From contig JAGTQE010000002.1 in assembly GCA_018396635.1 (NCBI GenBank), forward strand, positions 73,615-137,614: DNA of 64,000 nt, read 5' to 3'. This document shows, piece by piece, positions 10,280 to 56,761 of this stretch (the first letter of the stretch is position 1; each line of letters begins with the position of its first letter). The notes beneath the pieces are model-generated. The model was not told the origin of the DNA. It made no database searches and saw only the letters and a list, made by a program, of their open reading frames with translations. This stretch comes from Candidatus Bathyarchaeota archaeon. Its GTDB lineage: Archaea; Thermoproteota; Bathyarchaeia; Bathyarchaeales; DTEX01. Both the position numbers and the translations under genes were made by a program.

Positions 10280-10326
10280 AACCGCGAAAACGATTTGCGT
10301 GGAGAAATGCTGATTCTTCTCACCAC

Positions 10327-11145
10327 TTATGGTTCTAGGGTGAAGTAGACGCGCTTATTCAGCCTACCCTTACTCTCGAACTTCAGCAGCCTTATCTGCC
10401 CAACCTCCCTAAGGTTTCTGACATGGGTTCCGCCATCAGCCTGCCTATCTACGCCGACAACCTCAACTATGCGCAGCCTAGGTATGTTTGGTGGGAAGGC
10501 CTCAGCCATCTTAACTACGCCCGGTATCTTTAGGGCTTCTTCCCTTGGCAGCTCATACCACTTAACCTCAATATCCTTCTTGAATAGCTCGTTGGCCTTC
10601 TCCATACACTTTATAATTATATCTCTGTCTAGGCGCTCCAGGCTGAAGTCGAAGCGGACCTTATCCTCCTCAATCTGATTTCCGGTCACAAGGGCGCCTG
10701 TCTCGTTGCAGACTAGTGATGCGAAGACGTGGGAGGCTGTGTGGCTGCGCATAAGCCTATATCGCCTATCCCAGTCTATTACACAGTGGACTTTGTCGCC
10801 TACCCTTAAGCCCTCCCTATCAACCTCATGCGATATCTCGTCGCCAATCTTAACAACATAAATAACATTGAAGACTTCTTCTCCACGCAATATTTTGCCC
10901 GTATCGTGGGGTTGACCACCACCCCTAGGGTAAAAGACTGTCTGATCTAAGACAACGTATCTGCCATCCGTAACCTTAACTACGGTCGCATCACATTCCT
11001 TGAGATAACTATCCTCTAAGTAGAGGGGCTTAGTCAAGATCAGATCACCAAGGAATATTTTAGAGAAGAGAGATTTATGCGTTAAATCGCCTACTTGGTG
11101 GCGGAGATCTAGATATGAGAGGGGAGAGGGCTTAACGTGAATCAT
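10327..11145 (-). CDS. alaX: Alanyl-tRNA editing protein AlaX (AlaX-M type)
   Basis: Has the HTASH zinc motif and a second motif QADGGTHV, which carries Asp where the family normally has CxxxH. N-terminal beta-barrel-like region. Length is 272 aa. Confidence 0.75.
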   Translation of the reverse strand: MIHVKPSPLSYLDLRHQVGDLTHKSLFSKIFLGDLILTKPLYLEDSYLKECDATVVKVTDGRYVVLDQTVFYPRGGGQPHDTGKILRGEEVFNVIYVVKIGDEISHEVDREGLRVGDKVHCVIDWDRRYRLMRSHTASHVFASLVCNETGALVTGNQIEEDKVRFDFSLERLDRDIIIKCMEKANELFKKDIEVKWYELPREEALKIPGVVKMAEAFPPNIPRLRIVEVVGVDRQADGGTHVRNLREVGQIRLLKFESKGRLNKRVYFTLEP

Positions 11146-11248
11146 ATGTGTAATTCACATTATTATTTAAAAACTACTGAGCATAATTACATAATATTTA
11201 AATATAAGATGTTAACAATAACTTAATACCTATCGTAAAGAGGTTATA

Positions 11249-12307
11249 GTGTTGCCCGACATAATTCTTGACATCCTTAAGAATGGAAGGATACAGAGGG
11301 TGCTAAGGGCCTTAAAGGACGGGGTCCTCAGCAGCATAGAACCCACAGTCAATTTTGATAGCGGAATTGACTACCCTTCCCTACATGGCTTCTTTGACTC
11401 CGTAGACGAGGCTAGCAGGTCCCTCCTAATGCTGTGCGAGGCTGGCCTGCTTACGTCTGAGGTCGTAGATAATGTTGCTGTCTGCCCCGTATGCCAATCC
11501 CATAGGCTCATGATTAGAATGCGCTGCCCATCATGCAGCTCATCTAAACTAACTAGGGGCGCGATGATTGAGCATCTGGCCTGCGGGCACATAGACTTCG
11601 AGGAGAGATTTAAGAGTGGGAATGGGCTTGTCTGTCCACGATGTGGTAAGCCCCTTGGCTCCATAGGATCGGACTACAGGACGTTTAGCTTCCTCTATAG
11701 ATGCCTGGCTTGTAGGGGTGTCTTCTCTAACCCGAAGGTTGAGTATTTATGTGGTAATGGGCATGTTTTCAGTGAGGGTGATCTTTCAATCCAAGCTATT
11801 AGGTTGTTTAGGCTTAATCCTAATAAAATCTCTCTGCTCGATCGTTTAATGCTTGATATTGAGGGGATATTTAAGCCGCTTAAGGATGAAGGCCTTATTA
11901 TTGAGTTTCCGGCTGAGGTTTATGGGGAGACTGGCATTAAACACGATTTCTCATTCGCAGTATGGGATAGTGTTGAGGGTAAGGGCAGTAAGCCCCCAAT
12001 GGTTGTTGGCTCTATACATGCATCTGATAGTGTTGTGACAGCTGTTGATGTTCTAGCCTTCTGGGCGAAGGCCCTTGACGCTAAGGCTAAGCATAAAATT
12101 ATAATAGCGCTCAGCGGCATTGATAAGGGTGGTAGAGAGCTAGCTAACACTTATGGCATAAAAATTATTGAGGGTAAGAGTTTATCTGAAGCCATGGCTA
12201 AGGCTAGGAGCATAATTGAGGAGACTACTGAGGCTACTGGGGTTGAGGAGCCTGTGCAGGGTGGCGGTGGGGTTGTGGAGAGAACAGTTTCAACCCATCT
12301 TGAATAG
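11249..12307 (+). CDS. Multi-zinc-ribbon protein with an N-terminal helical (possibly wHTH) region and a C-terminal alpha/beta domain; function unknown
   Basis: Cys clusters are CPVCQSHRLMIRMRCPSCSS, CGH..VCPRCGKPL and CLACRG..CGNGH. The C-terminal part (FSFAVWD..MVVGSIHASD..KIIIALSGIDKGGRELA) is reminiscent of a restriction-endonuclease-like fold. It lies directly upstream of the pilin operon. Confidence 0.5.
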   Translation: MLPDIILDILKNGRIQRVLRALKDGVLSSIEPTVNFDSGIDYPSLHGFFDSVDEASRSLLMLCEAGLLTSEVVDNVAVCPVCQSHRLMIRMRCPSCSSSKLTRGAMIEHLACGHIDFEERFKSGNGLVCPRCGKPLGSIGSDYRTFSFLYRCLACRGVFSNPKVEYLCGNGHVFSEGDLSIQAIRLFRLNPNKISLLDRLMLDIEGIFKPLKDEGLIIEFPAEVYGETGIKHDFSFAVWDSVEGKGSKPPMVVGSIHASDSVVTAVDVLAFWAKALDAKAKHKIIIALSGIDKGGRELANTYGIKIIEGKSLSEAMAKARSIIEETTEATGVEEPVQGGGGVVERTVSTHLE

Positions 12308-12937: not shown

Positions 12938-14575
12938 ATGTGTAATGTTTGTTGGGGTGATTTGATGGGCGTTAAGAAGAGTGGGGAGGATAGTGGGCGG
13001 AGGGCCAGATTCACGCTCAGTAAACTGTTCGAGAAGAAGTTTACCCCCCCACCTCCAGTTGCAGTCTTCTCAAAGATCCCCGAGAATGCTATAATAATAG
13101 AGTCATATGTGATCCATAATCCCTTCTCTAAGGTGACAATAGCATCACTACCCGACCTCGGAGGGGAGAAAGCCTACTTTATCGAGGAGGTTGAATTATC
13201 CCCCGAGGAGCACGCAATTCTAAGCAGGCTCTCTGATATAGTTAGCGTTGAGATCGAGCCCCCTCCAGAAGAGATTGTTGACCCATACAAGTATGTTGAG
13301 GGCGAGGCGGAGAGACTTGCCAGAAAATATGGCTTAACTAAGCAGGTCAAACGCCTAGGCGAGGAGTCCTGGCGTAAAATCCTATATTATCTCCAGAGGG
13401 ACCTTATAGGCTTCGGCCCACTACACGTTATAATGAGCGACAGAATGATTGAGGACATATCCGTTAACGGCGTGAATGTGCCGGTATACGTCTGGCACAG
13501 AAAATATGAGAGCATGCCAACAAACCTAAAGATAATCGACGAGAAGACATTAGACAACCTCCTAATAAAGCTCACACATATAGCCCAGAAGCACATATCG
13601 ACAGCATTCCCAATACTGGACGCAATGCTCCCAACAAAGGATAGGCTTGCCGCAACATTCAGATACGAAGTCTCACCTAAGGGAAGCACATTCTGCATAA
13701 GGAGATTCAGGGAGGAACCATTCTCAGTAATAGACCTAATAGAGCTCGGAACAATGGATGAAATGCTCGCAGCATACTTCTGGCTACTAATAGAGAACAG
13801 GATGACAATGATGGTTATAGGGGGAACAGGAGCCGGAAAAACATCAACACTAAATGCTCTAGCAAGCCTAGTAAAACCATCAATGAAGATAGTCACAGTG
13901 GAAGAGATACCTGAGCTAATGTTCCCGCACGAGAACTGGGTCCAGCTAGTCAGCAGGGCAAGCTACGGGCTGGGCACATCGAGAACAGGCGAGATAAGCC
14001 TATTCGACCTGGTCAAAGTCTCCCTAAGATATAGGCCAGACTACATTATAGTTGGCGAGGTTAGAGGCGAGGAGGCATTCGTACTATTCCAAGCAATGGC
14101 CACCGGACACGGAGGCCTAACAACAATCCACGCCGAAAGCCTAGAGCACGCAGTTAAAAGGCTAACAAGCCCGCCGATGAACGTGGCTGAAAGCTACATA
14201 CCCCTTGTCAACACAGCCATAGTTCAGGAGAGGGTTCAGCTGCCAAGGCCCAGGATGGGGCTAACCTTCGGAAGGAGGATACGTGAAGTCCACGAGATCG
14301 TAGACTACGGCAGATACGAGATGATATCTTCATGGAACCCATTAACAGACACATTCACATACAACTTCAGGAAGAGTGAGATGCTCAGGAGAATAGCCAT
14401 AAAGTACGGTGTGAGCATGGAGAGCGTCCTAGAGGAGCTAACCAGAAGAGCTCTGCTCTTCAGGGATCTGCTAATTCGTGGAGTGAGGAGCAATGTGGAT
14501 ATTAGGGCGGAAATATCTAGATACCGCCTACTAAACCCGTTCCCAATAGTAGCTATGCAGAGGAGGATTGCTTAA
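12938..14575 (+). CDS. Type IV pilus assembly ATPase (PilB/ArlI/VirB11 superfamily)
   Basis: Walker A GGTGAGKTST, Walker B/Asp box DYIIVGEVRGEEA, His box GHGGLTTIHA. The probable start is the ATG at 12965. Confidence 0.9.
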   Translation: MCNVCWGDLMGVKKSGEDSGRRARFTLSKLFEKKFTPPPPVAVFSKIPENAIIIESYVIHNPFSKVTIASLPDLGGEKAYFIEEVELSPEEHAILSRLSDIVSVEIEPPPEEIVDPYKYVEGEAERLARKYGLTKQVKRLGEESWRKILYYLQRDLIGFGPLHVIMSDRMIEDISVNGVNVPVYVWHRKYESMPTNLKIIDEKTLDNLLIKLTHIAQKHISTAFPILDAMLPTKDRLAATFRYEVSPKGSTFCIRRFREEPFSVIDLIELGTMDEMLAAYFWLLIENRMTMMVIGGTGAGKTSTLNALASLVKPSMKIVTVEEIPELMFPHENWVQLVSRASYGLGTSRTGEISLFDLVKVSLRYRPDYIIVGEVRGEEAFVLFQAMATGHGGLTTIHAESLEHAVKRLTSPPMNVAESYIPLVNTAIVQERVQLPRPRMGLTFGRRIREVHEIVDYGRYEMISSWNPLTDTFTYNFRKSEMLRRIAIKYGVSMESVLEELTRRALLFRDLLIRGVRSNVDIRAEISRYRLLNPFPIVAMQRRIA

Positions 14576-14577
14576 AC

Positions 14578-16329
14578 ATGGCGTCCCTCACCGGCCTAGC
14601 CTACCAAGGCTTCTGGTGGCTATCAAACATTTTAATGAAAGTATTCTATGGCGGGGATTCATCCAAGCTTAGAGATACGCTCGAGGCTGCTGGGATAAGA
14701 ATATATCCAGAAGCTTACATGTCGATAGTCAGCCTCCTTCTAATAGTGTCTGCGGCCACATCAGCAGTTCTGACCTGGCTCACAGGCTTCTACCCAATAG
14801 TAGCCGCCCCACTAATAGTTCTCCTAATCGGATATGCCCTGCCAAGCATAAAAGCCCAGGATAGGGCGTCAAAGCTGGATATGGAGGCACCTTTCATGGC
14901 TGCCTACGTGAGCGTCATGGCCACAGGAGGCCTCTCACCATACTCAAGCCTCAAGAGGCTTAAGGGCTGCGTCCTCCTCCCACACACGGCTAAAACTGCA
15001 AAGCAGATTGAGGTCGACGTATACCTGAAGGGTATGGATCCCATAGCCGCAATAGAGAAGTCCGCTGAGAGGGCCCCATCAAAAGAGTACAAGGAGTTCC
15101 TCATGGGATACGTTTACACACTCAGGGCTGGTGGGGACGTGGTCCACTACCTCCTAACAAGGACTGAAATGATGTTTAGGGATCTTGCGGCGAAGGTAAG
15201 GATATTTGGGGAGCGGGCTGCAATGCTCCTAGAATCATATGTTGCTGTGATGATCCTGGGAACGCTGGGCATAAGTATAGTATATTTGACGTCAATAGCC
15301 TTCCAGGGCTACTGGCAGGGAGGCTTCACAGCCGAGAACTTCCTGCTATACTCATATATCCTTGTGCCAGTCATATCAATCCTCTTCCTATACCTATCCG
15401 ATCTATCCAGCTTCCAGGAGCCAATATATGAGACCATGCCATACAAGGTGTTTATGGCATCAATGCCAATCATGCTCTTCCTAATCTTCACAATGTTCTT
15501 TCCATACCTTATGCCTGAGCTCGCCCTAATACCCCTAATAAGCCAATTCAAAGACTTCCTAACATCCCTAAGAATAATGCTCGGCCTAGAGCGGGGGATT
15601 GAGCCATCACTAGGCATGGGTATAGCCCTAATAGCCGGAACTGTTCCGGCAGCAGTAACCCACAGCTACTATGAGAGCCGTAGGGGTAAAAAGATAGTTG
15701 GCGAGGTAACAAACTTCCTCAGAGACATGACTGAAGCCAGAAAGACTGGAGCCTCACCTGAAGCATGCATAATCCAGCTATCATCTAGGCCATATGGAGC
15801 CTTCAGCAAACATCTGGGGATAGTTGCTAGGCAGATAAGGTGGGGTCAGCCGATAAGGGTTATATATGAGACGCTGAAGAGGAGGATAAGCTCCTGGTTT
15901 GCATTAATCAACCTCTATCTTCTAGTTGACGCCATAGAGATTGGCGGAGGCAACCCTGAAACGCTTGAGACCATGGCTAGGTTTGGCGAGATGCAAGCAT
16001 CCCTCGAGAAAGAGAAGATGTCCGCCCTCCGCCCGCTGATAATAATGCCATACATAGGCACGGCGCTAATGGTCTTCTCAACACTTGTGACAATAAACTT
16101 CATGTACTCAGCGGTCATGACGATAGGGCGCGTATCAATACCGATCACGCAAATACTGGCGACAATAGTTCCGGGCCTAGTCTTCCAGTCATATTTAATG
16201 GGTATAGTAACCGGCAAGATCAGTACTGGAAACGTTTCAGCTGGATTTAGGCATGCAATAATACTCGCCCTAATCGCCATGCTCTCAATGGTCTTCATGC
16301 GCTTCTTCGGCATGTTCCTACAATTATAA
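14578..16329 (+). CDS. Type IV pilus platform membrane protein (TadC/ArlJ, T2SS-F family)
   Basis: 583-aa polytopic membrane protein with two cytoplasmic T2SSF-like domains separated by TM bundles. The start is 2 nt after the ATPase stop. Confidence 0.85.
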   Translation: MASLTGLAYQGFWWLSNILMKVFYGGDSSKLRDTLEAAGIRIYPEAYMSIVSLLLIVSAATSAVLTWLTGFYPIVAAPLIVLLIGYALPSIKAQDRASKLDMEAPFMAAYVSVMATGGLSPYSSLKRLKGCVLLPHTAKTAKQIEVDVYLKGMDPIAAIEKSAERAPSKEYKEFLMGYVYTLRAGGDVVHYLLTRTEMMFRDLAAKVRIFGERAAMLLESYVAVMILGTLGISIVYLTSIAFQGYWQGGFTAENFLLYSYILVPVISILFLYLSDLSSFQEPIYETMPYKVFMASMPIMLFLIFTMFFPYLMPELALIPLISQFKDFLTSLRIMLGLERGIEPSLGMGIALIAGTVPAAVTHSYYESRRGKKIVGEVTNFLRDMTEARKTGASPEACIIQLSSRPYGAFSKHLGIVARQIRWGQPIRVIYETLKRRISSWFALINLYLLVDAIEIGGGNPETLETMARFGEMQASLEKEKMSALRPLIIMPYIGTALMVFSTLVTINFMYSAVMTIGRVSIPITQILATIVPGLVFQSYLMGIVTGKISTGNVSAGFRHAIILALIAMLSMVFMRFFGMFLQL

Positions 16330-16343
16330 TCGGCGAAAGGTAA

Positions 16344-17072
16344 GTGGCAGTTATGGAGAAGAGAGGGGTCTCACCAGTTATATCGACAGTGATCATAACG
16401 GCAATACTGCTTATAATACTTATAATAGCATCACTCCTGGCGACAAGCCTACTAGAAATCCAGATGCAGAACTCTGAGTTCGAGCAGGCTAAGACAACAA
16501 TGCTCCTGCTAGACAAGATCATAATGGATGTGTCACTAAGACCCGGAGCCGCAAGCTCAGTCCAATTCAACCAGAGGAGCGGGGGAATAGGCATGTACGA
16601 GAGCGAGCCAATCAACATAAAGATCGAAGACGCCTCAAAATCAGAGATTATCCCAATAAACTCTTACGTGATTAAGTATCGTGGGGGGAGTATGGTTTCA
16701 GCTGCAGAAGCAAATCTAACCAATCCAGGCGGACTAATAGTCGACATGTCTAAGCCCTTAGGACATGTTCGAATAGAGTCTGGAAACGGCGCATGGATAA
16801 TATTAGACTACAATAGAGTGCGTATCACCGTGAATAAGGAGCTTAGAACAATGGACATTTACTTGATCCGTTTAGAGAGAGGAACATTCGGCGGCTCCGG
16901 GACCGTGAATGTTAGAGTTCAAAACAAGGGAATAAATGTGAAATCAATAACGCTTAGCGAAAGCAGCCTAACGGTTCGCGTGGAAGTTGGCGGTATAAGC
17001 GAGGAGCAATTTTACTCAGGGATATCTGTTGTTAGGGTGATAGAGGTCACCATAATGGTCTCTGTGACTTGA
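16344..17072 (+). CDS. Pilin-like protein with a canonical class III signal peptide (DUF361 N-terminus)
   Basis: The N-terminus reads MAVMEKRG/VSPVISTVIITAILLIILIIASLL, followed by a 200-aa beta-rich domain. Confidence 0.75.
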   Translation: MAVMEKRGVSPVISTVIITAILLIILIIASLLATSLLEIQMQNSEFEQAKTTMLLLDKIIMDVSLRPGAASSVQFNQRSGGIGMYESEPINIKIEDASKSEIIPINSYVIKYRGGSMVSAAEANLTNPGGLIVDMSKPLGHVRIESGNGAWIILDYNRVRITVNKELRTMDIYLIRLERGTFGGSGTVNVRVQNKGINVKSITLSESSLTVRVEVGGISEEQFYSGISVVRVIEVTIMVSVT

Positions 17073-17073
17073 G

Positions 17074-17613
17074 GTGCTGAATGTGGTTCACATATCAATA
17101 CAGCATATTATTGGAACAGTTGCGCTAATAGGCTTGGCCATATCCCTCGCCCTAGCCTACCAGATAGTAGTTGGATATGTTGAAGAGAACGTTATCAGAA
17201 CGCAGCTAAGCCAGACTGCGGAGTACGTCTCAATGAGCATTTCACACATAATAAACCTAATGGACTTCACATATGGCATGTTTAAGGAATATGTAACCGT
17301 TTCAAAGAGCCTGAACCTTCCATCAGATCTGAGCGGAAAAGCCTACATTATAAGACTTGTAAATGAGAGCGGTATTCTATATGTTAGGGTAGAGATTCCG
17401 GGAAGAAGCAGCCTCTATGCCAAATCATCTATACCGGTTAACCCAGCGTCAAACATAAGTATAGTTACGGACGAGAATTTTACTCCAAACGATTCCACTA
17501 TCGAGCCAAAAGAGTATGTTTATGGAGGTAATCCGAATGTTGTCGTTTGGTGCGAGATTAGAAAGGGAGTGCTTTATATTGGCCTAGGCTTAAGGAGGCT
17601 TAGTGGAGAATGA
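17074..17613 (+). CDS. Pilin-like or minor pilus subunit candidate (N-terminal hydrophobic helix, non-canonical leader)
   Basis: The N-terminus reads ..QHIIG/TVALIGLAISLALAYQIVVGY. The start is 1 nt after the preceding stop (GTG), with in-operon coupling. Confidence 0.55.
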   Translation: MLNVVHISIQHIIGTVALIGLAISLALAYQIVVGYVEENVIRTQLSQTAEYVSMSISHIINLMDFTYGMFKEYVTVSKSLNLPSDLSGKAYIIRLVNESGILYVRVEIPGRSSLYAKSSIPVNPASNISIVTDENFTPNDSTIEPKEYVYGGNPNVVVWCEIRKGVLYIGLGLRRLSGE

Positions 17614-18656
17614 AGACTTACGAGTATATTTTTGCGGCAATTATAATGGTTGCAATACTGCTGGCCGCTGTCTTCCTAACCAGCATATCAGCACCACTCT
17701 ATAGGAGCACCTCCGATGTGGAGCAGTTAAAGATGACCGCGCAGAAGGTAATGGCGCAGATACTCCTAAGCCCAGGTAAACCGGAAGACTGGGGTGAGAA
17801 CATTACTTTAAGGGCTTCAGACCTATCATCTTTCGGCTTAGCGGTAAGCACGGTCTTCACCCGCGAGGCATTTGTCCTGGACCCTGATAAAGTTCAGAGA
17901 CTAAGCCAGACTCTGCCCAAAAGTCTCTCTATACTGCCGGAAAGGATTCTAGAGTTGCTGAGCCTAGGCTCTAAAAAAACTGGCTTTGAATATGGTATAA
18001 GAATAGAATTTATTCCAGCATTAAATATAATGATGAATCTGAGCTTAGATAGAAAAGTTAATGTTATCGTTATCTCGGAACAGGGTATGCCGGCTAAGGG
18101 TGCTAAAGTGACTGTTGGGGCGGTCTTTCCTTTTAATAATGAGGTTCTCTTAGAGCGGGCTTATGGCTCTACTGACGAAAACGGGCGCTGCACCCTAGAC
18201 TTAACCTTCTCGAGTCCAGCGCTCCTAATCGCTGCTGTAGATTATTACGGTGTACAAGGGGTTGCGGTGAAGGCTGTTGGCGCCAACACAAATGCCTACT
18301 TTATTGGCAGCTTCCTTCTATCATCCTCTCTTATATCCAGAGAGGAAGCCTACCAAATATTTCTCACAAAGCTTCCAAGTGGAACGATTAATGTAGGATG
18401 CGTACGCTATGAGTTAACCTACAATAATGAGGAGATTAACGGCTACTATGCGTATGAGATGAATGGCACAGAACCGCATACTGTCGCCGTGGTGGCGGTG
18501 GCTGATGGTGGCCTTATAGCGGCTTGGAAGATTGTCCCCGAGAGCTTCGGCCCCTCAGCTAAAGAGATACCTTTAGCCTACATGGTTGAACGGAGCGTTA
18601 AGATTGGGTTCTCCTCATACACGGTTAGATTATGGGTGTGGAGGATGTCGTGGTGA
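17610..18656 (+). CDS. Pilus-associated protein with an N-terminal hydrophobic helix
   Basis: The N-terminus reads MKTYEYIFAAIIMVAILLAAVFL. An ATGA start/stop overlap links it to the upstream gene. Length is 348 aa. Confidence 0.55.
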   Translation: MKTYEYIFAAIIMVAILLAAVFLTSISAPLYRSTSDVEQLKMTAQKVMAQILLSPGKPEDWGENITLRASDLSSFGLAVSTVFTREAFVLDPDKVQRLSQTLPKSLSILPERILELLSLGSKKTGFEYGIRIEFIPALNIMMNLSLDRKVNVIVISEQGMPAKGAKVTVGAVFPFNNEVLLERAYGSTDENGRCTLDLTFSSPALLIAAVDYYGVQGVAVKAVGANTNAYFIGSFLLSSSLISREEAYQIFLTKLPSGTINVGCVRYELTYNNEEINGYYAYEMNGTEPHTVAVVAVADGGLIAAWKIVPESFGPSAKEIPLAYMVERSVKIGFSSYTVRLWVWRMSW

Positions 18657-19123
18657 TGGGCTACTCAAGTTTTGGGCAGATGAGAATAATTGAGGCCGTT
18701 ATAGCGGCCACACTAATGTTCATAGTCTTCACAGCGGCTTTCTTCATGCTCTTCTCCTCAGAGAAATTCTTTAGGCAGGAGGCTATTGACTTAAACAGGC
18801 TAGCGTATAACGTCCTGCATCGTCTAGCCGAGTCAGGTGTGATTGAGACCGCTATTGATAAAAGCCAGAGCGCCATGTTGGCCAGCGCCCTCCAGAGCCT
18901 GCTGCCCCAAAACGTATACTTCAACCTGACAATTTATGAGAGGGATGGATCCGGCCAGGGATGGATCCCGGTTAATTTAGATGGGAAACCTTACGTCTCA
19001 AACGCCTCCGGAGGAGTTTTTGAGAGGTTAAGTGAGGTTGCCTCAGCCAGCATAACCTATACGTCGAAGAATGGTAAAATATATTATTTGAGTTTAGTTC
19101 TCACGAGGGCTGGGATTACATGA
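18632..19123 (+). CDS. Pilin-like protein (G/Q prepilin-like site)
   Basis: The probable start is the ATG at 18656, which overlaps the upstream TGA. The N-terminus reads MGYSSFG/QMRIIEAVIAATLMFIVFTAAFFML. Confidence 0.6.
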   Translation: MGVEDVVVMGYSSFGQMRIIEAVIAATLMFIVFTAAFFMLFSSEKFFRQEAIDLNRLAYNVLHRLAESGVIETAIDKSQSAMLASALQSLLPQNVYFNLTIYERDGSGQGWIPVNLDGKPYVSNASGGVFERLSEVASASITYTSKNGKIYYLSLVLTRAGIT

Positions 19124-19217
19124 GTTTCCAGCTTAATCTATATTATTATATTACTGGACCACAAAGAATATATACAATGACAGATATAACATATAACAGC
19201 ATAATAGAGTCTTCGAG

Positions 19218-21107
19218 TTGATTCATGTGAATAGATTTAGGAAAGATAGAAGAGGGCAGTTCGTTATTCTGGTCGCAGTTATAATAGCAGCCTTCATGTT
19301 CTCCCTAATACTATCAATAGGCCAGATAAACGCGAGAAGGCAGGAAGTATCCTATGAGCCAGTAGACGAAACAGTCCTAGCGATAACAAGCGACTTCGAA
19401 AGATGCCTAACAAGAGCACTGGCAATCGCAACACAAAATTACAGCGAAACTTGGGACATGGATTTGGCTAAGATAAGCGGAGAGAAGTTCATTAATGATT
19501 GGCTTAAAGTTCTCCTAGAATCTTATCAAGGATTCGGCATAGATATCACTCTAATACCTGAGAAAGGCACAGGCAAGAATATAGCTTGGGCCATAGATTG
19601 GGATAAAAAAGAGGGCATAAGTATGGTTTATACAACCTTCGGCATGAATATTAAGGCATATGGACTTAAAAACCTGGCCATCACAATGCAAAGAACGTTA
19701 TACCTTGAGATACTAAATACTGAAGTAAAGTTAAACAATTCGGATAGCCTCATAATAGTGGCATTTAGAGTCTGTCTAGGTGGTATGAAGAAACGCTTTA
19801 TACCAGTATCAGATCTTGCACAGGCTAATGTAAAGTTGCTTGTTAACGGAACTAATGAAATCAAAATCGAGAGTCTTGAATATTTGAACCAGGGAACATA
19901 TAGGGCTACGTTTAACTTCGATGGCTCAGTTATAAAATATATTACTTTAATCGTTACAGACAACAATGGTATAAGAGTTGCGGCGAGATGGGGATCATGC
20001 ATTCTATTCTTAGAAAGCGATGATTTATCAACACAAGGTATCGATAATGAAGGCAGCTTCACGATTAACGGAACGACGGTTAAACTGCAGCATGCCCCAT
20101 ATGTACTGTCACTTTTCACAAATCAAACGCTTGCAATCTCGTTTGCCCCGCCTACTGGAAGTGAATTTAAATACTTCTCGTCCATCGGCTTCGTCGATGT
20201 GTCGCAAAATGGGGTTAATGCAATAATAAAAGTGAAAAATTATGGCTATGAAAGCGTCAATGCAAGAGTAATCGCCCACTACAATAGCTCAAGCATTCCT
20301 ACTGTAGAGAATTGCAATATAACTCTGATGAGCCTAGAGGATGGAGGCGCTACTTTCAATTTAGGAAATATTACATTGACATGGTCAGGGGTCTCGCAGA
20401 CGTTCGACGAGTTGCCAGCATCAGTTCTAGTTCCATACAATGAGTGGATAGAAATAAAATATGACCCGGAACCTGGATATCTTTTCAAATATTGGGAGTG
20501 GGATCCTGTCTACGCAATAGAAATGGATGATAGCTTTTCTTCATCAACTGTTTTTCGTGCTACTGGTAATGGAACAATTATAGCAGTATACAGCACATCT
20601 AGGCCTGCGGAATGGCGAACTATTTATCTTGCCCCCCTAAAAGAGAAAGGCGCTGGATCTGAGAAAAAAGAAGAGTTTTCACTTACAATAAAATATCCCG
20701 ATGAGCTTCCAGACGTTACGCCGCGCCTTAATAATCCACATGATAGCCGTAAGGGGGAAACCGTGGAGACGACGCCAACAGATTTACTTCTCGGCGAAGA
20801 AATAACTATAATTATATGGGCAAAGTATACTAAAGAGGGAAAAGAAAAAGATGATTACATAAATGTCAAATTTACACTGGGCTACATCGATAGTGAGGGA
20901 GTTTTCCATGAGATTGGCAATAACACGGCTAGTATCGGTAAATCATCAGGACCACCTGTCGAGCAACCACCAATATACATTTCACCAAATATCGAAGTTA
21001 TACCAGCAGGCAGTAAAATAGTTCTAATAATTGAACGCTTGGATGAGGGCGAGGGAACACTACATATAGACTGCGGTCCAGGCAAATCAAGAATTATACT
21101 TTGGTAA
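19218..21107 (+). CDS. Large (629 aa) pilin-like protein, candidate pilus tip or adhesin subunit
   Basis: The N-terminus reads (M)NRFRKDRRG/QFVILVAVIIAAFMFSLILSIG. The remainder is about 590 aa, beta-rich and sequon-rich. It is preceded by a 94-nt AT-rich spacer. Confidence 0.65.
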   Translation: MIHVNRFRKDRRGQFVILVAVIIAAFMFSLILSIGQINARRQEVSYEPVDETVLAITSDFERCLTRALAIATQNYSETWDMDLAKISGEKFINDWLKVLLESYQGFGIDITLIPEKGTGKNIAWAIDWDKKEGISMVYTTFGMNIKAYGLKNLAITMQRTLYLEILNTEVKLNNSDSLIIVAFRVCLGGMKKRFIPVSDLAQANVKLLVNGTNEIKIESLEYLNQGTYRATFNFDGSVIKYITLIVTDNNGIRVAARWGSCILFLESDDLSTQGIDNEGSFTINGTTVKLQHAPYVLSLFTNQTLAISFAPPTGSEFKYFSSIGFVDVSQNGVNAIIKVKNYGYESVNARVIAHYNSSSIPTVENCNITLMSLEDGGATFNLGNITLTWSGVSQTFDELPASVLVPYNEWIEIKYDPEPGYLFKYWEWDPVYAIEMDDSFSSSTVFRATGNGTIIAVYSTSRPAEWRTIYLAPLKEKGAGSEKKEEFSLTIKYPDELPDVTPRLNNPHDSRKGETVETTPTDLLLGEEITIIIWAKYTKEGKEKDDYINVKFTLGYIDSEGVFHEIGNNTASIGKSSGPPVEQPPIYISPNIEVIPAGSKIVLIIERLDEGEGTLHIDCGPGKSRIILW

Positions 21108-21267: not shown

Positions 21268-21630
21268 TCATACGTTCATTTTTATTTTTGTAGAAAAGAT
21301 GTTTAAGTCGTCCCTTAAGACCACGCCATGTTCTATGGTTTCCATAGCAATTGGCTCCCTTCTCTCTATAAGTCTCTTAAATTCTTTAGGCGTTAGGGCG
21401 ATAATCTGGTAGCCTGGAGGAGCATCAAGGTTTTCCAATCTATGTACGGGGCTTCCCACAAATTCTTCTGAGATAACTAATATGTCTACATCGCTCCAGA
21501 GGTTGAAATCACCCCTCGCATATGAGCCTATTAAGATGACTGTGGCCTTAAATGAGATCCTAGAGGCCCACTCCTTAGCCTCTAATATGCGTTTCTCCCT
21601 CAGCCTTCTCCTTTCTTCAATGATCCCCAT
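21268..21630 (-). CDS. Minimal nucleotidyltransferase (MNT), antitoxin-type partner of HEPN
   Basis: Pol-beta NTase motif GSYARGDFNLWSDVDILVIS. It overlaps the upstream HEPN ORF by 31 nt. Confidence 0.85.
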   Translation of the reverse strand: MGIIEERRRLREKRILEAKEWASRISFKATVILIGSYARGDFNLWSDVDILVISEEFVGSPVHRLENLDAPPGYQIIALTPKEFKRLIERREPIAMETIEHGVVLRDDLNIFSTKIKMNV

Positions 21631-22025
21631 TTCCCCTCAACCCAACCTATTATATTCTCAGCGAACTTTATAGCTTCTTCAGCATCCCTCCGCGTATAAT
21701 ATTCGTCTGGGCTGCCCTCAACCCAAGCATTAGGATACCTTGTTGGCACATAATATTTATCTAATGTCTTAGCAGCCTGAACCACGTTATCCTCACATCC
21801 AAAGATTCTCCCAGCCCCCTCCAAAAGTCTCGACAAGCTATGCCCATACGAGGGCATGCCTAAACCCCTGAGCAAAGCCTTTAAGGCAAGCTCAGCCGCC
21901 TGATGGGATTTAAAGCAAGCCCAATTATAGTCGCCCCTCTCAAAATCACCCCTTGCAGAATTCAGAGTCTTCCTGCTAAAGAGAATCCATCTTAAGTATT
22001 CGCTTTCATCCATGCTTCTCCACAA
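21600..22025 (-). CDS. HEPN domain protein
   Basis: Contains the HEPN (PF05168-like) helices KSHQAAELALKALLRGLG..GHSL and YYVPTRYP. It is paired with the MNT. Confidence 0.8.
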   Translation of the reverse strand: MWRSMDESEYLRWILFSRKTLNSARGDFERGDYNWACFKSHQAAELALKALLRGLGMPSYGHSLSRLLEGAGRIFGCEDNVVQAAKTLDKYYVPTRYPNAWVEGSPDEYYTRRDAEEAIKFAENIIGWVEGKWGSLKKGEG

Positions 22026-34815: not shown

Positions 34816-35598
34816 TCAGACTCTCTTTTTCAGAAGCCTGCTAAGATATATTTCATACATTCCTCTCGCATCAAGGTACTCTATGAGAACATGAGCTTCA
34901 AACCTAGCTCTCAAGCCAGGCTCAGCCTCATAGAGAACTTTACCCTCCCTTATCACCCTGAATTTTAGGTGGAGGTCGGCTTCCTCCAATTCTATGAGGT
35001 CTATTTTTTCTTCATTTACCCCTAGAGCCTTAGCTATCTCTGTCTGAAGCCCACTCGCATCTCTCGTCTTCTCACTAAAGAGCATGGCTATATCCCAGTC
35101 GCTACTCTCAGTTTCGAGACCCCTAGCCCTTGAACCGAAGAGGTAGGCTAGCGCCACACCTCTACGCTTAAAGATCTGGATTAAGCCCTCAAGGATTTGA
35201 GGTGGATCTATCCCTCTCTTCCTTATCTCCTCGATAAGTTTTAATGCCATATCCTTTGAGTATACTGCTTCGTTCCCATAGGCTTTAAGCTCCTCTGAAT
35301 CCAGCCGCCTATAAGTGTGCGCAACTCTATTTCTGATCCTAGCCATATTCTTAAGCCTAGTTGCCTCTAAGCCATCTAAGAGCCCTGCCTCGGCTAAAAT
35401 GTCGGCTATTTCGGTGTAGGATGAGGGTTTCCTTAACCCAAGCTCCGCTATGATCATGGCACAAGCGTCTAGAAGCGTCTGAAGCGTCTCGTAAACAGCC
35501 CAACGTAGTGAGTAAACATGAATCCAGTCTTTAGGCTCTATATAACTTATTCTCCCAGCAACCTCCACAACCTGAGAGAGCAGATTAATAATCTCCAA
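34816..35598 (-). CDS. Single-chain fusion of a HEPN (DUF86/HepT-like) domain and a minimal nucleotidyltransferase (MNT) domain
   Basis: The N-terminal half has the Rx4HxY motif RIRNRVAHTY. The C-terminal half has the NTase motif LFGSRARGLETESSDWDIAMLF. Confidence 0.75.
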   Translation of the reverse strand: MEIINLLSQVVEVAGRISYIEPKDWIHVYSLRWAVYETLQTLLDACAMIIAELGLRKPSSYTEIADILAEAGLLDGLEATRLKNMARIRNRVAHTYRRLDSEELKAYGNEAVYSKDMALKLIEEIRKRGIDPPQILEGLIQIFKRRGVALAYLFGSRARGLETESSDWDIAMLFSEKTRDASGLQTEIAKALGVNEEKIDLIELEEADLHLKFRVIREGKVLYEAEPGLRARFEAHVLIEYLDARGMYEIYLSRLLKKRV

Positions 35599-38903: not shown

Positions 38904-39773
38904 ATGGAGATAAGTTATGAAAAGCAAGCTGAAGTCCTTGAGAATCTAGCCGAAGAATCTGTTAGAAGGGGAGATTATGAGACGGCTGCACATTTATTCA
39001 GACGTTTGGCTGTATATTATGGGCTTGTTGGCGATAAACATGGCAGGAGAAAGTTTGCTATTAGGGCTGGGGAATATTATATGCGGGCGGCCGAGGCTCT
39101 TCCTGACGATATAAAAGTTATGGCTCTTTACCTAAAAGCGATGGAATCCTTTACGGAGGGTGGGGTGAGAGAGGCAGCTCACTTCTGCGGCTTAAGGATA
39201 TGGGAACGCTTTGCTTCAATTAAAGATGGTGTTTTCGAAGTAGATAGTGAGGGTATAGGTGTGCTTAGGGCTGTAAGCGACCACTTTGCCGAGAGAGGGG
39301 ATCTTGAAAAAGCAAATATAATGTATAAGAGCGCTGCTGAAATGGCGCTCAAAAGTGGGAAGCTCCTACTAGCTGGAAGACTTTATAAGAGCGCTGGCGA
39401 CTGCAACTTAAGATCTGGAAAGATAGAGGAGGCCGCAGATCTATATATTAAAGCAGCTAACATGTATTTTTCATGTGAAGAATACTTCGAGGCAGCGTGG
39501 AGCTATTGTGAAGCTGGCTTTCTGCTCATATGTTTAAGAAGGTTTAAGGAAGCTTCAGATATTTCAGAGATGGCTGAAGAATCATGCCGCAGAGGTCAGA
39601 TATCGATCTTCTTGAGGGATCTGAGCAATCTCTGTAATCTTCTCAGCCGGGGCCTTATAAGTGAGGCGAGGGAGAAATGGGATAAAATTAGAATGAAGAT
39701 TAGAAAAGAGTACGCTCAAATTATCGAGTCTTCATTTAGGTCTGTTGAGGGGGACTATAATTTCCCGCGCTAA
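38904..39773 (+). CDS. All-helical TPR-like repeat protein (SNAP-like repeat pattern)
   Basis: Repeated A-x2-(L/M)Y-x-(K/R)AA helical hairpins, for example EKANIMYKSAAEMALKSGK, LAGRLYKSAGDCNLRSGK and EEAADLYIKAANMYFSCEE. Confidence 0.5.
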   Translation: MEISYEKQAEVLENLAEESVRRGDYETAAHLFRRLAVYYGLVGDKHGRRKFAIRAGEYYMRAAEALPDDIKVMALYLKAMESFTEGGVREAAHFCGLRIWERFASIKDGVFEVDSEGIGVLRAVSDHFAERGDLEKANIMYKSAAEMALKSGKLLLAGRLYKSAGDCNLRSGKIEEAADLYIKAANMYFSCEEYFEAAWSYCEAGFLLICLRRFKEASDISEMAEESCRRGQISIFLRDLSNLCNLLSRGLISEAREKWDKIRMKIRKEYAQIIESSFRSVEGDYNFPR

Positions 39774-50804: not shown

Positions 50805-51152
50805 ATGAATATTGATAGAGAGCAGTTTAGGAAGATGTTCCCAAATCTTGCTAGAGAGATTGAGGGTGAGGGAGTTAAGATAAGGATCTCATCTATAAGG
50901 TTAGATCCAGTTGAGGGTGAGAAGGCTGTTTCAAAAAAGTTTGATGGCTATAACCCGGATGTTATAGATTTCCTAAGAAGATGTGATACCGAGGAACAGG
51001 CTGAAGAAATAATAGCGTATTTGGAGAGAAGGGGAGAGGTAACCAGCGAGTATGCGGCAGCCCTCAGAAAGCAGCTGAAAGAGAAGGGCGTAAGGAGCTT
51101 TGGCCCAAAAAAGGAGGAGGCATATTACCTCAGGCAAGCGGGCTATAGATGA
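50805..51152 (+). CDS. Conserved archaeal small protein (DUF2095-like)
   Basis: FRKMFPNLAREI and VIDFLRRCDTEEQAEEIIAYLERRGEV resemble my memory of DUF2095. This is not verified. Confidence 0.45.
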   Translation: MNIDREQFRKMFPNLAREIEGEGVKIRISSIRLDPVEGEKAVSKKFDGYNPDVIDFLRRCDTEEQAEEIIAYLERRGEVTSEYAAALRKQLKEKGVRSFGPKKEEAYYLRQAGYR

Positions 51153-51216
51153 AAGTGCTAACTCCCTCAAGATTGCTTAACTCTTAAATATAATGGGTTA
51201 AGCTTACCTCTAACAT

Positions 51217-53025
51217 TTGGAGCAAAAAATGCAAGGATGGGCGTGGAAAGTGAGGGTTAAAGCACATTTATCAACTTGCCTGTTTCTTTCACTCATACTT
51301 ATTTTCACGGTCACTTCCATAACCAAATGCTTAAATGGAGAGAATATTAGGGCCTTGTCGCAGCCAGCGAACTTACATGTAAATGTTGAGAGGAAGATAA
51401 CGCTGCTAAGCGGCGGATATATGATGATCAATGATACTTTTTTGCTTTCGCAGTCTATGGAAGGCGGCTCAAAACCTACATTAGTAACTAGCTATGTTGT
51501 TGGTATGCCGAAGAATTATAGTGAGAGACTGGTTTATTATAGAGTTTTCAATCACGGGGGTTCTTTGCCTGTAAAGATACTCGAGGATGAATTATTCTGG
51601 TGGCTGAATGTAACGTTTCCAGAGCCAGTTGATTTAAGCGTTAATAAAGCATACAATTTTACCGTGATGCTTGTCCTCTCAGACTTAATTTCAAGGAAAA
51701 CGGCAAGCATATTTTCAGCAACATTCCCATTGTATCCGAGCCTAACGCATGAGGCCCTCTCTTGCAACGTCACGTTAATCCTGCCATCTTCAGCTAAAGT
51801 CTCAGAAAACGATTATCCAACCAATATATTCGTTAATAAAACTGGAGACTTCAGAGTCCTCAATAATATAACTAGCCCGCTCCCACCTTACTCAAATATC
51901 TCCTCTTGGATAAAGTTTTCAGATGTAACGTTCAGGATACTTAAGTTTTTGGAGCTGAGAAGAGAAATATCAATTGACGTTTGGGGAAAAATCTCAGCAA
52001 TAGATTTCTATGAGATAGAGGCTGCTAATGTTTACTCTGTGGATATTATTTTGCCCCTTAAGGCAACAGATATAGTTGTTTATGATGCGTATGGCAAGTA
52101 CTCGAAAGCAGATGTGCGTTTCTCTAATGAAAGCTATGGTGTTGTGGTGAAGATATATTTGAGCGAAAAGCTGAGAGCTGACGGGAGAATTAAAATTGCA
52201 GTGTCTTATGCGCTGCCACCTCAGAATTATCTAGTTAAAGATGGATGGCAAAACTATGTGCTTAAAATAAATCTTATTAGACCCGATGAATGGGTCATAT
52301 ACAAAGTCGCCTTAATAGTCACGTTGCCTGAGGGAGCAAGCCTGATACAGGTTAACGAGCCTATAACAAGAGCGCAGGGAATTAGGGTTGAGTCAGTAAG
52401 CCCATTTCAAGAGAGAGTATTTGTAGAGTACCATAGCGTCGTTAGATTTGAGGACGTGAGCATAAATGTAAGCTATCAGTATATGGTTTTTTGGGCGGGG
52501 CTCAGACCAACCCTACTTGCAGCGGCCATTGTTGGCTCAGCCATAATCCTCTTCCTGCTCGCTAAATCATCGGCTCATGTCGGCATACCTTCGCCAACAC
52601 CAGTTTCTGTTGAGATCCTAAGGAAGTTTATAGAAGTTTGTGAGGAAAAGAACCGCATAATGTCTGAGATGGAGTCTTTAGAGGAGCAGTCTGCGCGTGG
52701 AAAGATATCTAGGAGGCAGTATAGGCTTATGAGAAAAAATCTAGAGGGGCAGCTCTCATCCGTTCAGAAGAGCTTCCTTGATTTGAAGGCTAAGATGGAG
52801 GCTGCTGGAAGAACATACGCTAACATGATTAAGAGGCTGGAGGAGGCTGAAGCTGAGATTGAGGTCATGAAGAGAAGCATTTCTGATGTAGAGGTTAGAT
52901 ATAGGCGTGGAGAAATATCTGCTGAAACTCGCCGCAGCCTCCTCGAAGACTATAGAAGGAGAATTGATAGGGCGGAAAGCGTTAGAGATGAAATTCTCTT
53001 AAGACTTAAGGAGGAAATTCTGTAG
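51217..53025 (+). CDS. Ribophorin I (OST1)-like type I membrane protein
   Basis: Signal/anchor (res 17-37), ~390-aa extracytoplasmic domain, TM at res ~428-450 and a ~150-aa charged coiled-coil tail. There are several collinear local matches to human RPN1 as I recall it (see the finding). Confidence 0.6.
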   Translation: [602 protein letters not shown]

Positions 53026-54038: not shown

Positions 54039-54230
54039 GTGTCTAAAATGGCTAAAATACAGATTGACCTTGAAAAGTGTACTGGGTGTGGAAGCTGCGT
54101 TGATATATGTCCAGCAGGAGTCTATGAGCTTAGAGAAGGAAAGTCTGTTGCGGTTAACGTTGATGCATGCCTCCTCTGCAGGGCCTGTGAGACCCAATGC
54201 CCGAACAACGCCATAACAGTTGCTGAATAG
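54039..54230 (+). CDS. 2x[4Fe-4S] ferredoxin
   Basis: Two cluster motifs, CTGCGSCVDICP and CLLCRACETQCP, in 63 aa. Confidence 0.85.
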   Translation: MSKMAKIQIDLEKCTGCGSCVDICPAGVYELREGKSVAVNVDACLLCRACETQCPNNAITVAE

Positions 54231-54252: not shown

Positions 54253-55371
54253 CTAAAGAGACCAGTACCTGGACTGGGCTCTCCTAACATCTTCAATTAT
54301 TTTATTTGCCTCTCTTTGAGACCTCAAATTTATTTGGGGCCGCCTATCTCTAATCTTAACGCTTATTCCAGACATCCTAGATATGCAGGATACCACAGCC
54401 CTCCTCAAAAACCAGAGGTTGTATCCACCCTCCAAGATGGCTACAAGTCTTCCATCACAAAGTCTATTTGCCAGATAAATGGCCTCTTGGAAAATTTTAG
54501 GGTAGATGTATGCGGAGAGAGATAGGTCGGCTACTGGATCTTTATAGTAGCCGTCAAAGCCTGCAGATATTATCATGAACTGAGGCCTATACTGCACTAT
54601 AATCGGCGAGATAATCGTCTTGAAGGCCTTCCAGAAGGCTGGGTCGCCGGACCAGTAGGGGAGGGGTATGTTGACAGTGTATCCCCTACCTTTATTGGCA
54701 CCAATCTCCCAAATAAACCCTGTCCCAGGGAAATCTGTAGGATCCTCATGTACACTTATGTAGAGAACCTCGTCAGTATCATAGAAGATCTCTTGGGTTC
54801 CATTTCCATGATGCGCATCCACATCCAAGATTAATACTCTCCTGAGGCCGGCCCTTTTAATGAGGTATTTCGCAGCTAATGCTGCATTATTAAAGATGCA
54901 AAACCCAAGTGCATAGTTTGGCCCAGCATGGTGACCGGGCGGCCTAGCTGCCACAAAAGCATTATTAAATTCTCCCAATAAAACTCCCTCCACAGCCCTT
55001 ATTGCGCCTCCAGCCGCTAGTTTAGCGACCTCGAAGCTCTCCCGCGATAGGTGTGTCTCATCGCTTATTAGGCCGCCGCCGGAATCACATATCTCTTTAA
55101 TCTTCTCAACGTATTCTCTGGTGTGGACTAGCAGCAGCTCTTCTGGGTCTAATTCCTTTGGCTCGACTATAACAACTCTATCTTTAAGCAACTTCTCTCC
55201 CATTATACCCCTCATTATTGCGGTAAGTCGCTGGGGTCTCTCCGGGTGATCTACTCCAGTCTTATGATCCAAATATTTAGGCGAATATACTACTGCCGTT
55301 CTCATGCCGTCTAACCTCGCTAAACACTTTATTAATGAGGGATTGCATAGAAAGACCTTTCTTCTTCGCAA
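54253..55371 (-). CDS. Histone deacetylase/acetoin utilisation (AcuC)/acetylpolyamine amidohydrolase family protein
   Basis: Motifs are RPPGHHA, DVDAHHGNGTQ and GGY. The probable start is the ATG at 55305 (MRTAVVYSP..). Confidence 0.85.
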   Translation of the reverse strand: MRRRKVFLCNPSLIKCLARLDGMRTAVVYSPKYLDHKTGVDHPERPQRLTAIMRGIMGEKLLKDRVVIVEPKELDPEELLLVHTREYVEKIKEICDSGGGLISDETHLSRESFEVAKLAAGGAIRAVEGVLLGEFNNAFVAARPPGHHAGPNYALGFCIFNNAALAAKYLIKRAGLRRVLILDVDAHHGNGTQEIFYDTDEVLYISVHEDPTDFPGTGFIWEIGANKGRGYTVNIPLPYWSGDPAFWKAFKTIISPIIVQYRPQFMIISAGFDGYYKDPVADLSLSAYIYPKIFQEAIYLANRLCDGRLVAILEGGYNLWFLRRAVVSCISRMSGISVKIRDRRPQINLRSQREANKIIEDVRRAQSRYWSL

Positions 55372-56761
55372 TCCTCTTTAATGCTCGGTTCACTCCAGTC
55401 CCGTATTGAATAGCCCTTTTAGGTTTAAGGTAGATTTCTTCCGGTAAGCCGATATGCTTGGCGAGACTTCTAAGTATCCTCTTCCTCAGCGGATCGTCTT
55501 GGGACGCTATTTTTAATGTTATTGGTAGGCTAAGGGCGAAGGATGCCAGCTCATAATCCACGTATGGGAATCTAACGTCCACGCCATGAAATGAGCAGAC
55601 CTTCTCCTCAGCCTCCAGAGTATTTTCATGCAGCCTTAACACGTCACCGTAAGTTGCCCGCACAACACAATCAGGCGAGATACCAAAATCCCTTAAATAC
55701 TTATGGTAGCCCGCAAACAGCTCATCGCTCCCCTGTCCGGAGAGCATAACCCGACTGTTAAGCTTAGATGATATCTCAGCAACCCAGTATATTGGGATAA
55801 AAATCGACGCCTTTAAAGCGTTCGCCTCCTCAATCAGCCATAAGACTTTAGGTAAAGTCTCCTCAACATCCTCAGGCGCGTATGTTTCAGCCTTAAGTGG
55901 TAAGCCCATTATATTGGCGGTTTTCTCAGCCCACTCTACCTCTTTAGAGCCCTCTAATCCAACCGATATTAGAAGCACCTTTACGCTAAACTTCTTTGCC
56001 AAGGCAGCCAATATGCTGCTATCTAAGCCACCTGAGAATCCGATTGACACCTCCCCTAAACCATACATCTTCTCCCTAACAGACCTTAAAAGCATGCAAT
56101 ATAGCCTCTCTAAGGCTGCGTACTCATCAACCGCCTTTATTATAGGCTCATCTAAAACCTTAATCACCCTCATTCTCACGCTGTCCCCAGATATCTCCGC
56201 CATATTTCCAGGCGGAAAAGACCTTATACCGCCATTATCTATTCCAAGAGCCCATAGCGCTTTCTTCTCTGAGGCTAGGGCGAAAAACGCCTGGCTCTCG
56301 CAGAGGTAGAGTGGCTTTGCGCCCATGGGATCTCTTCCAACAATCAGCCTATTGTCCTTAATGGCGGCGAAGGAGAATATTCCATTCATTCCTCTAATGG
56401 CGTTCTCCGCAAACACTTCAATATCGTTAAATTGCTCTAATAGGCTGGGGATCTCTCTAGGACCAGCATATTGTGGCGAGAATACCCTTCCATCGAAAGC
56501 CACCTTACAATCTTTGTATTCAATTGGCTGCGGAGCATCCTCTGGGAGAATGCCACTACAACCATATCCTATCGCTATGCTTGATTTAACCCTAACCAGA
56601 TCCGCCAGATCGCTAAGATCCTTCACTATAGCAGTCATGCTGCCCGTTGATATTCCGTAGGTCTCTCCACCCCTGTGCCTAAGCACCTTGAGCATCTTCA
56701 CGGCTTCTAATACAGCATTTCCATTATTGCGCTTAGAGACGACGGCTACTAGAGCCCCCAT
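55277..56761 (-). CDS. Asparagine synthase (AsnB)-like protein lacking the N-terminal catalytic Cys
   Basis: PP-loop GFSGGLDSS in the synthase domain. The Ntn-amidotransferase-like N-domain begins MGALVAV (Gly in place of Cys2). An in-frame stop lies two codons upstream of the ATG. Confidence 0.8.
   Translation of the reverse strand: MGALVAVVSKRNNGNAVLEAVKMLKVLRHRGGETYGISTGSMTAIVKDLSDLADLVRVKSSIAIGYGCSGILPEDAPQPIEYKDCKVAFDGRVFSPQYAGPREIPSLLEQFNDIEVFAENAIRGMNGIFSFAAIKDNRLIVGRDPMGAKPLYLCESQAFFALASEKKALWALGIDNGGIRSFPPGNMAEISGDSVRMRVIKVLDEPIIKAVDEYAALERLYCMLLRSVREKMYGLGEVSIGFSGGLDSSILAALAKKFSVKVLLISVGLEGSKEVEWAEKTANIMGLPLKAETYAPEDVEETLPKVLWLIEEANALKASIFIPIYWVAEISSKLNSRVMLSGQGSDELFAGYHKYLRDFGISPDCVVRATYGDVLRLHENTLEAEEKVCSFHGVDVRFPYVDYELASFALSLPITLKIASQDDPLRKRILRSLAKHIGLPEEIYLKPKRAIQYGTGVNRALKRIAKKKGLSMQSLINKVFSEVRRHENGSSIFA

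Follow-up and report, generated by a model that had tools for sequence, protein, structure and literature searches.

A full-length OST1/ribophorin I homolog of the long form encoded in a Bathyarchaeia genome

Ribophorin I, or OST1, the accessory subunit through which the eukaryotic oligosaccharyltransferase (OST) docks ribosomes, is usually counted among the eukaryotic signature proteins tying eukaryotes to Asgard archaea. Prokaryotic Ost1 has been described as previously reported in Asgard archaea, and TMEM258/Ost5, RPN2, OST48, and DAD1 are, among prokaryotes, reported only for that group (Eme et al. 2023); OST1 and OST3/6 have been stated to be present in both TACK and Asgard archaea (Carilo et al. 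2024). Ribosomes are pulled down by the tails of human RPN1 and of OST1 from Asgard strain MK-D1 but not by the ectodomain (PMC11417166); the RPN1 tail bundle touches eL28 and ribosomal RNA (rRNA) at H25 and H19/20, and yeast Ost1p is without the bundle (PMC6761772); OST-A substrates are selectively impaired when the bundle is truncated (PMC13112475). Here, an OST1 homolog is described from a stretch of 64,000 nucleotides (the window; contig JAGTQE010000002.1, positions 73,615 to 137,614, forward strand) of a Candidatus Bathyarchaeota archaeon (assembly GCA_018396635.1). All coordinates below are those of the window unless a different locus is named.

The open reading frame (ORF) at 51217–53025 is a full-length OST1/ribophorin I homolog, and it resembles the long form of metazoans and Asgard archaea more than yeast Ost1p. 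The initial annotation had read it as ribophorin I-like from five segments taken as collinear with human RPN1; all five are reproduced in HMMER alignments, and profile and structure searches bear the reading out. The Pfam family Ribophorin_I (PF04597) is matched with E 6.3e-10 (39.1 bits, gathering score 25) over aa 271–448, corresponding to profile positions 256–436 of 437, and is also matched by 35 of 40 close relatives (best E 4.3e-17). Direct phmmer comparison with PDB sequences retrieves the cytoplasmic domain of OST1 of the Lokiarchaeon MK-D1 (8WHN, chain A; E 2.3e-7) and human RPN1 (E 1e-5), with ILPEGA aligned. With a profile of the 40 relatives, E-values become 5.1e-21 for human RPN1, 1.9e-14 for 8WHN, and 9.6e-4 for yeast Ost1. 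A wider archaeal profile of greater diversity (A3), with an Odinarchaeia protein among its members, aligns with the window clade end to end (hhalign; probability 100%, E 6e-106, 563 columns) and finds human RPN1 at 1e-34, in two segments (residues 9–254, 1.6e-11; residues 273–606, 3.9e-20), and yeast Ost1 at 1.4e-15 (its N-domain at 4.4e-6). Among these segments, the INVSYQY/IVVHYTF pairing is seen, along with others, in the direct phmmer alignment to human RPN1, the N-terminal V-R-I...NDT strand pairing at the level of the wider family profile, and another in the 40-relative profile.

An AlphaFold2 (AF2) model was built on the 40-sequence alignment of relatives (mean pLDDT 88.2, pTM 0.63). 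Hydropathy and model agree on the layout: an N-terminal hydrophobic helix, an ectodomain of ~380 aa, one transmembrane helix, and a charged helical tail of ~140 aa. The features of the gene, as predicted, are the following.

51184–51231, + strand: predicted expression signals, read directly from the sequence (TATA-like TTAAATATAA, 51184–51193; Shine-Dalgarno (SD)-like GGAG, 51219–51222; ATG, 51229–51231).
51217–53025, + strand: whole ORF, OST1/ribophorin I homolog, from the ORF list (stop codon 53023–53025).
51250–51336, + strand: N-terminal hydrophobic helix (aa ~12–40), signal peptide or signal anchor (hydropathy 12–30, 18–40).
51373–51975, + strand: extracellular beta-sandwich domain 1 (aa 53–253; AF2 strands, pLDDT mostly >90).
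51991–52479, + strand: extracellular beta-sandwich domain 2 (aa 259–421; AF2, and the PF04597 match from aa 271).
52492–52569, + strand: single transmembrane helix (aa 426–451 in AF2; hydropathy 427–457), aligning to the RPN1 and Ost1 transmembrane helix.
52609–53019, + strand: cytoplasmic four-helix bundle (aa 465–601; AF2, superposition on 8WHN, phmmer and profile matches).

At the N-terminus, the model has a helix at aa 2–33 followed by a low-confidence linker at 34–43; for comparison, the signal peptide of MK-D1 OST1 is cleaved upon expression in HeLa cells (Carilo et al. 2024). Domain 1 is the counterpart of the N-terminal luminal domain of RPN1/Ost1. Domain 2 holds the family-wide LPEGA motif (aa 370–374, nt 52324–52338), where conservation of P371 and G373 is 95% or higher among 159 family representatives, and W426 and P431 are conserved at the transmembrane helix. 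The 10 N-x-S/T sequons all fall within residues 72–417, eight of them in domain 1 and none in the tail; this confinement to the part N-terminal to the transmembrane helix fits an outside-N, inside-C orientation. The signal or anchor, the ectodomain, and the single transmembrane helix (placed at ~428–450) of the initial annotation thus stand; its coiled-coil tail does not, the tail being an up-down four-helix bundle in the AF2 model (helices 465–493, 499–530, 532–563, and 569–601).

When the PDB is searched with Foldseek, the eight best matches are all RPN1/Ost1 chains, at E-values between 7.5e-29 and 1.7e-20, over as many as 600 columns and with TMt reaching 0.73. The chains belong to cryo-electron microscopy structures, four of them of yeast OST and the others of human OST-A, OST-B, and the Sec61-TRAP-OST-A translocon. 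An integrin is the first match outside the family (E 6e-7), and the likeness to RPN1/Ost1 far exceeds what chance would give. The luminal and transmembrane parts of 6s7t_E and yeast Ost1 are covered over 441–459 columns (TMt 0.68–0.73). The tail superposes on 8WHN over 141 columns (TMt 0.89, root-mean-square deviation 1.8 Å, 24% identity), for which reason it is taken as a four-helix bundle and not as a coiled coil. In the model, the marks of the OST1 family thus appear together: two extracytoplasmic sandwich domains, a type I layout, and, at the C-terminus, a bundle of four helices. The tail has an isoelectric point of 9.1, and a basic cluster (R494, K496, R499, R500, R503, R506; nt 52696–52734), conserved among the 159 representatives, sits at the turn between helices 1 and 2; as the helices of the bundle run up and down in alternation, the turn would lie at the membrane-distal tip.

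A CdvA-like coiled coil was considered for the tail and rejected (PF18822, 22.5 bits against a cutoff of 30; NCBIfam CdvA, E 4.3); the CdvA, SMC, and V_ATPase_I matches reflect sub-threshold helical bias, and the OST1 bundle accounts fully for the region. Such weak matches might suggest instead a structural or adhesion protein of the cell surface, sharing the sandwich fold only, with a tail likeness due to helical or compositional bias and no OST1-like function, and this would suit both the common occurrence of beta-sandwich ectodomains in archaeal surface proteins and an ectodomain that is low in guanine plus cytosine (GC) and quickly diverging. Sequence homology to RPN1/Ost1 is, however, significant in both luminal domains, the transmembrane helix, and the tail; RPN1/Ost1 chains (E at most 1.7e-20) are set far apart from generic sandwich proteins (E at least 6e-7) in Foldseek; and the coiled-coil families all stay under their Pfam cutoffs, while the tail lies on 8WHN to within the 1.8 Å given above. 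The profile and Foldseek results effectively refute the adhesion protein, to which we give next to no weight.

The ORF list of the window opens the 602-aa reading frame at a TTG (51217). The ATG at 51229, giving 598 aa, is probably the true start, since the GGAG and the TATA-like TTAAATATAA precede it and an independent gene call agrees: P0001, called on an essentially identical Logan contig, has 598 aa and starts at the ATG. The two elements are read here as a putative ribosome-binding site and a putative promoter, respectively.

The host is not an Asgard archaeon: placement gives Bathyarchaeia (TACK/Thermoproteota), and every named close relative of the protein is from Bathyarchaeia or from a Bathyarchaeota metagenome-assembled genome (MAG). 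A 352-aa protein of the window (11249–12307, + strand) carries a TackOD1 domain (PF18551, 'Thaumarchaeal output domain 1'; E 7e-33), which is characteristic of TACK archaea and so fits this assignment. A locus scan with a 12-sequence alignment and two peptide patterns, which is not a census, recovered 17 GTDB species representatives, all Bathyarchaeia; the isolate codes of many of them suggest hot-spring sampling sites. In all 17 loci the gene order is kept, whole or in large part: PfkB kinase, SerRS, S3Ae, nucleotidyltransferase, DUF2095, and OST1, followed 3' by TrmB, a small ferredoxin, HDAC, an Asn-synthase-like gene, and adenylosuccinate lyase. OST1 identity falls to 30–61% across these loci, against ~64–93% for most neighbours (in the closer loci). 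Retention of gene order in 17 species while OST1 identity drops as low as 30% speaks for old residence in the class, and indicates that OST1 is a long-term, vertically inherited resident of Bathyarchaeia which evolves faster than its neighbours.

Directly upstream of OST1, on the same strand, lies a DUF2095 gene (50805–51152, + strand; 115 aa, 'conserved in archaea'), found there in 17 of 17 loci, the most divergent Bathyarchaeia locus included. A functional pair of DUF2095 and OST1 was considered and rejected, as the adjacency is absent from Odin-type and other loci and the whole block is syntenic; it is most likely lineage synteny and not a functional module. Downstream, between the TrmB and deacetylase genes, an ORF of 63 aa (54039–54230, + strand) encodes a 2x[4Fe-4S]-type ferredoxin, with 62–97% identity in 15 of 18 loci; it falls short of the 130-aa limit set for scanning window ORFs with Pfam. 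The longest ORFs of the HDAC-family gene (54253–55371, − strand) and the Asn-synthase-like gene (55277–56761, − strand) overlap by 95 nt; the deacetylase probably starts at an internal codon, as its Hist_deacetyl domain begins at residue 42.

To gauge the breadth of the family, its profile was searched exhaustively with HMMER, which gave 1,285 clusters (50% identity) at E up to 1e-3 and 347 at E up to 1e-30; the best 150 clusters all exceed 260 bits, and most are full length. Sampled cluster labels are Bathyarchaeota and Thermoproteota MAGs and one Odinarchaeia protein. The window protein and the Odinarchaeia OST1 share 26% identity over aa 47–601 (E 7e-37). Word-indexed searches with profiles A1 and A3 returned nothing beyond the known clade, or the Odin seed alone. 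A rough neighbour-joining tree of the 159 representatives resembles a star: its internal branches are very short, Odin and Bathyarchaeia-labelled sequences are interleaved, and it does not separate vertical descent from ancient transfer.

The gene had also been noted as poorer in GC than its neighbours. The difference exists but is small: GC is 41.9%, where genes of the window average 46.2 ± 2.2% (z = −1.9), and this value is the second lowest among the 53 genes. The shortfall sits in the ectodomain (40.1%) and not in the tail (44.9%). Low GC, together with the interleaved tree, could point to recent horizontal acquisition from an Asgard archaeon in place of a native Bathyarchaeial gene. We consider this very improbable: gene order around OST1 is common to all 17 Bathyarchaeia representatives even where OST1 identity is down to 30%; the tail is near average in GC; and the gene with the lowest GC in the window (19218–21107) likewise encodes a secreted protein, so that low GC is likely compositional. 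Given the conserved position in 17 species, low GC is no sign of recent transfer; composition and faster divergence account for it best.

Vertical residence in Bathyarchaeia leads to a broader and tentative proposal, which we hold possible at less than even odds: that OST1 with its bundle is old and vertically inherited in Bathyarchaeia and predates Asgard archaea, a multi-subunit OST coupled to both ribosome and translocon, for OST-A-type co-translational N-glycosylation, stemming from a common ancestor of TACK and Asgard archaea. The 1,285 clusters, the deep synteny within Bathyarchaeia, and a tree that does not separate Bathyarchaeia from Odin sequences are compatible with it; an ancient transfer between phyla may also have taken place. 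If the proposal is true, OST1 is not an Asgard-specific eukaryotic signature protein.

As to novelty, the initial annotation was right in its homology call, but the novelty implied by its statement that prokaryotic ribophorins are discussed mainly for Asgard archaea falls away, OST1 of TACK archaea being on record. Relatives already bear precomputed PF04597 tags in public databases, and one of them, KYH37769.1, is already named OST subunit 1 in GenBank; its sediment contig, by the sample name (GBSed), is probably from a Guaymas Basin Bathyarchaeota MAG. TACK OST1 is thus already known, and the window protein adds another member. What is added here is structural confirmation over the full length, conservation of the bundle and basic cluster in Bathyarchaeia, and deep synteny implying long residence. 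A widespread and syntenically stable OST1 with a ribosome-binding bundle in Bathyarchaeia would extend eukaryote-like translocon/OST machinery beyond Asgard archaea, and would offer more, possibly more tractable or thermostable, proteins for testing a ribosome-coupled archaeal AglB.

For function, the reading we prefer, with a probability of roughly 0.6, is that of a Bathyarchaeial OST1 ortholog: a type I plasma-membrane glycoprotein that would act as an accessory of AglB, docking ribosomes for co-translational N-glycosylation. Full-length homology, fold, topology, and long residence in Bathyarchaeia are established here; association with AglB, ribosome binding, and an effect on glycosylation would follow by homology. 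In the proposed sequence of events, the N-terminal signal would send the protein through SecYE-beta, so that both beta-sandwich domains would come to lie extracellularly; the transmembrane helix would pack on the membrane domain of AglB, the STT3 homolog, which would be encoded elsewhere in the genome; the basic four-helix bundle would grip the large ribosomal subunit beside the Sec translocon; and AglB would thereby be kept at the channel exit, where N-x-S/T sequons would be glycosylated on the emerging chain, in an OST-A-like manner.

Partners of an OST were sought in the window and in related loci. The AglB/STT3 motif WWD[YWNF]G occurs in no frame of the 64-kb window, and Pfam scans of window ORFs from 130 aa upward found no STT3, OST3/6, DAD1, or OST48 family; these scans covered all such ORFs but a few, which lie inside annotated genes of the opposite strand or have a precomputed family. 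Motif search and scans therefore agree with the earlier statement that the window has no AglB/STT3 gene. ORFs of the window with several transmembrane segments were considered as AglB or as OST3- or DAD1-like proteins and rejected, their matches being T2SSF, GDT1, DUF2070, RDD, or none. The motif was likewise absent within 10 kb of the gene in the 17 Bathyarchaeia loci, and the called genes of five further loci (Odin-type and others), where the neighbours differ, list no STT3-family gene. In the locus L021, on a metagenome contig, the OST1 homolog P0101 has ~2.3 kb downstream of it an 845-aa protein with a weak TRAP_beta match (PF05753), encoded at 9430–11967 (+ strand) of that locus; two translocon-associated components may be linked here, and the contig is probably Asgard.

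Several points weigh against a role beside AglB. Since no OST subunit is encoded in the window or the loci examined, genomic context gives no support for an OST complex. OST1 diverges much faster than its neighbours (39–61% identity against ~64–93% for most), in keeping with a surface protein whose selection is relaxed or diversifying. Yeast Ost1 functions without the tail, and to our knowledge OST1 has not been biochemically demonstrated in any archaeal OST. Among archaea, eL28 is reported solely in Njord- and Hodarchaeales, and for that reason ribosome contact in Bathyarchaeia would be mainly via rRNA.

The same observations leave room for a true OST1 homolog that works apart from AglB, serving as a receptor for ribosomes or an accessory of the translocon; its tail would tether translating ribosomes near SecYE-beta, and its ectodomain would be a chaperone-like platform for chains as they emerge, without taking part directly in glycosylation. 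AglB is unlinked in every locus examined; the best conserved and best matching part is the ribosome-binding bundle, with its basic cluster and its fit to 8WHN; the upstream neighbours SerRS and ribosomal protein S3Ae are translation-related; and ribophorins were originally described as ribosome-binding proteins. Wherever it has been studied (PDB entries), however, the family is a stoichiometric OST subunit; the luminal domains and LPEGA are kept from archaea to human, which implies a conserved extracytoplasmic partner; and the S3Ae/SerRS adjacency is lineage-specific synteny, absent from Odin-type loci. We regard an AglB-independent receptor as unlikely, and keep to the AglB accessory as the preferred reading.

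Elsewhere in the window, a type IV pilus/archaellum-like assembly locus extends over 12938–21107 (+ strand), with the following parts.

12938–14575, + strand: T2SSE ATPase (Pfam).
14578–16329, + strand: T2SSF platform protein (Pfam).
16344–19123, + strand: four ORFs, each with an N-terminal hydrophobic segment and no Pfam match.
19218–21107, + strand: ORF of 629 aa with an N-terminal transmembrane segment and no Pfam match; lowest GC of the window (40.3%).

A predicted surface protein of 860 aa (3723–6305, − strand) has three CARDB repeats and DUF11, with hydrophobic segments at aa 3–29 and 830–857; it is likely a cell-surface or S-layer-associated protein and a probable substrate of N-glycosylation. 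A TPR protein of 289 aa (38904–39773, + strand) matches the eukaryotic SNAP family PF14938 (soluble NSF attachment protein) barely over the Pfam cutoff (29.1 versus 25 bits, E 8.8e-7), which may be mere TPR similarity. A stand-alone HEPN-domain protein (21600–22025, − strand) and a HepT-like RNase fused to a Polbeta/NTP_transf_2 nucleotidyltransferase (34816–35598, − strand) are, as predicted from their domains, toxin-antitoxin-type modules dispersed amid housekeeping genes.

Set beside the described systems, the window protein shares with yeast Ost1p (6EZN, 6C26, 7OCI, 8AGB) the two luminal domains and the transmembrane helix (Foldseek E ~1e-22, TMt 0.68–0.69; family profile 1.4e-15); it differs in that yeast Ost1p has no cytosolic four-helix bundle, and yeast OST is not coupled directly to the translocon. 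With human RPN1 of OST-A and OST-B (6S7O, 6S7T, 8B6L, 8PN9), it has in common a near-equal length (602 versus 607 aa), the same order of parts (signal sequence, two luminal sandwiches, one transmembrane helix, cytosolic four-helix bundle), and LPEGA, with a Foldseek E of 7.5e-29 over 600 columns and profile E-values of 5e-21 to 1e-34. Identity to human RPN1 is just 15–18%, the contact with eL28 is probably absent in the Bathyarchaeial lineage, and the Bathyarchaeial host is without an endoplasmic reticulum, which leaves the plasma membrane as the site of the protein. Compared with Asgard archaea, Bathyarchaeia are without the TRAP subunits and the wider set of OST subunits reported there, and Odin loci flank OST1 with glycine-cleavage and MutS genes. 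Asgard OST1 (MK-D1, Candidatus Prometheoarchaeum syntrophicum, 8WHN; Odinarchaeia P0184) nevertheless belongs to the same archaeal family as the window protein, and the GK-I-R-R and RY-RG-IS turn motifs are common to both.

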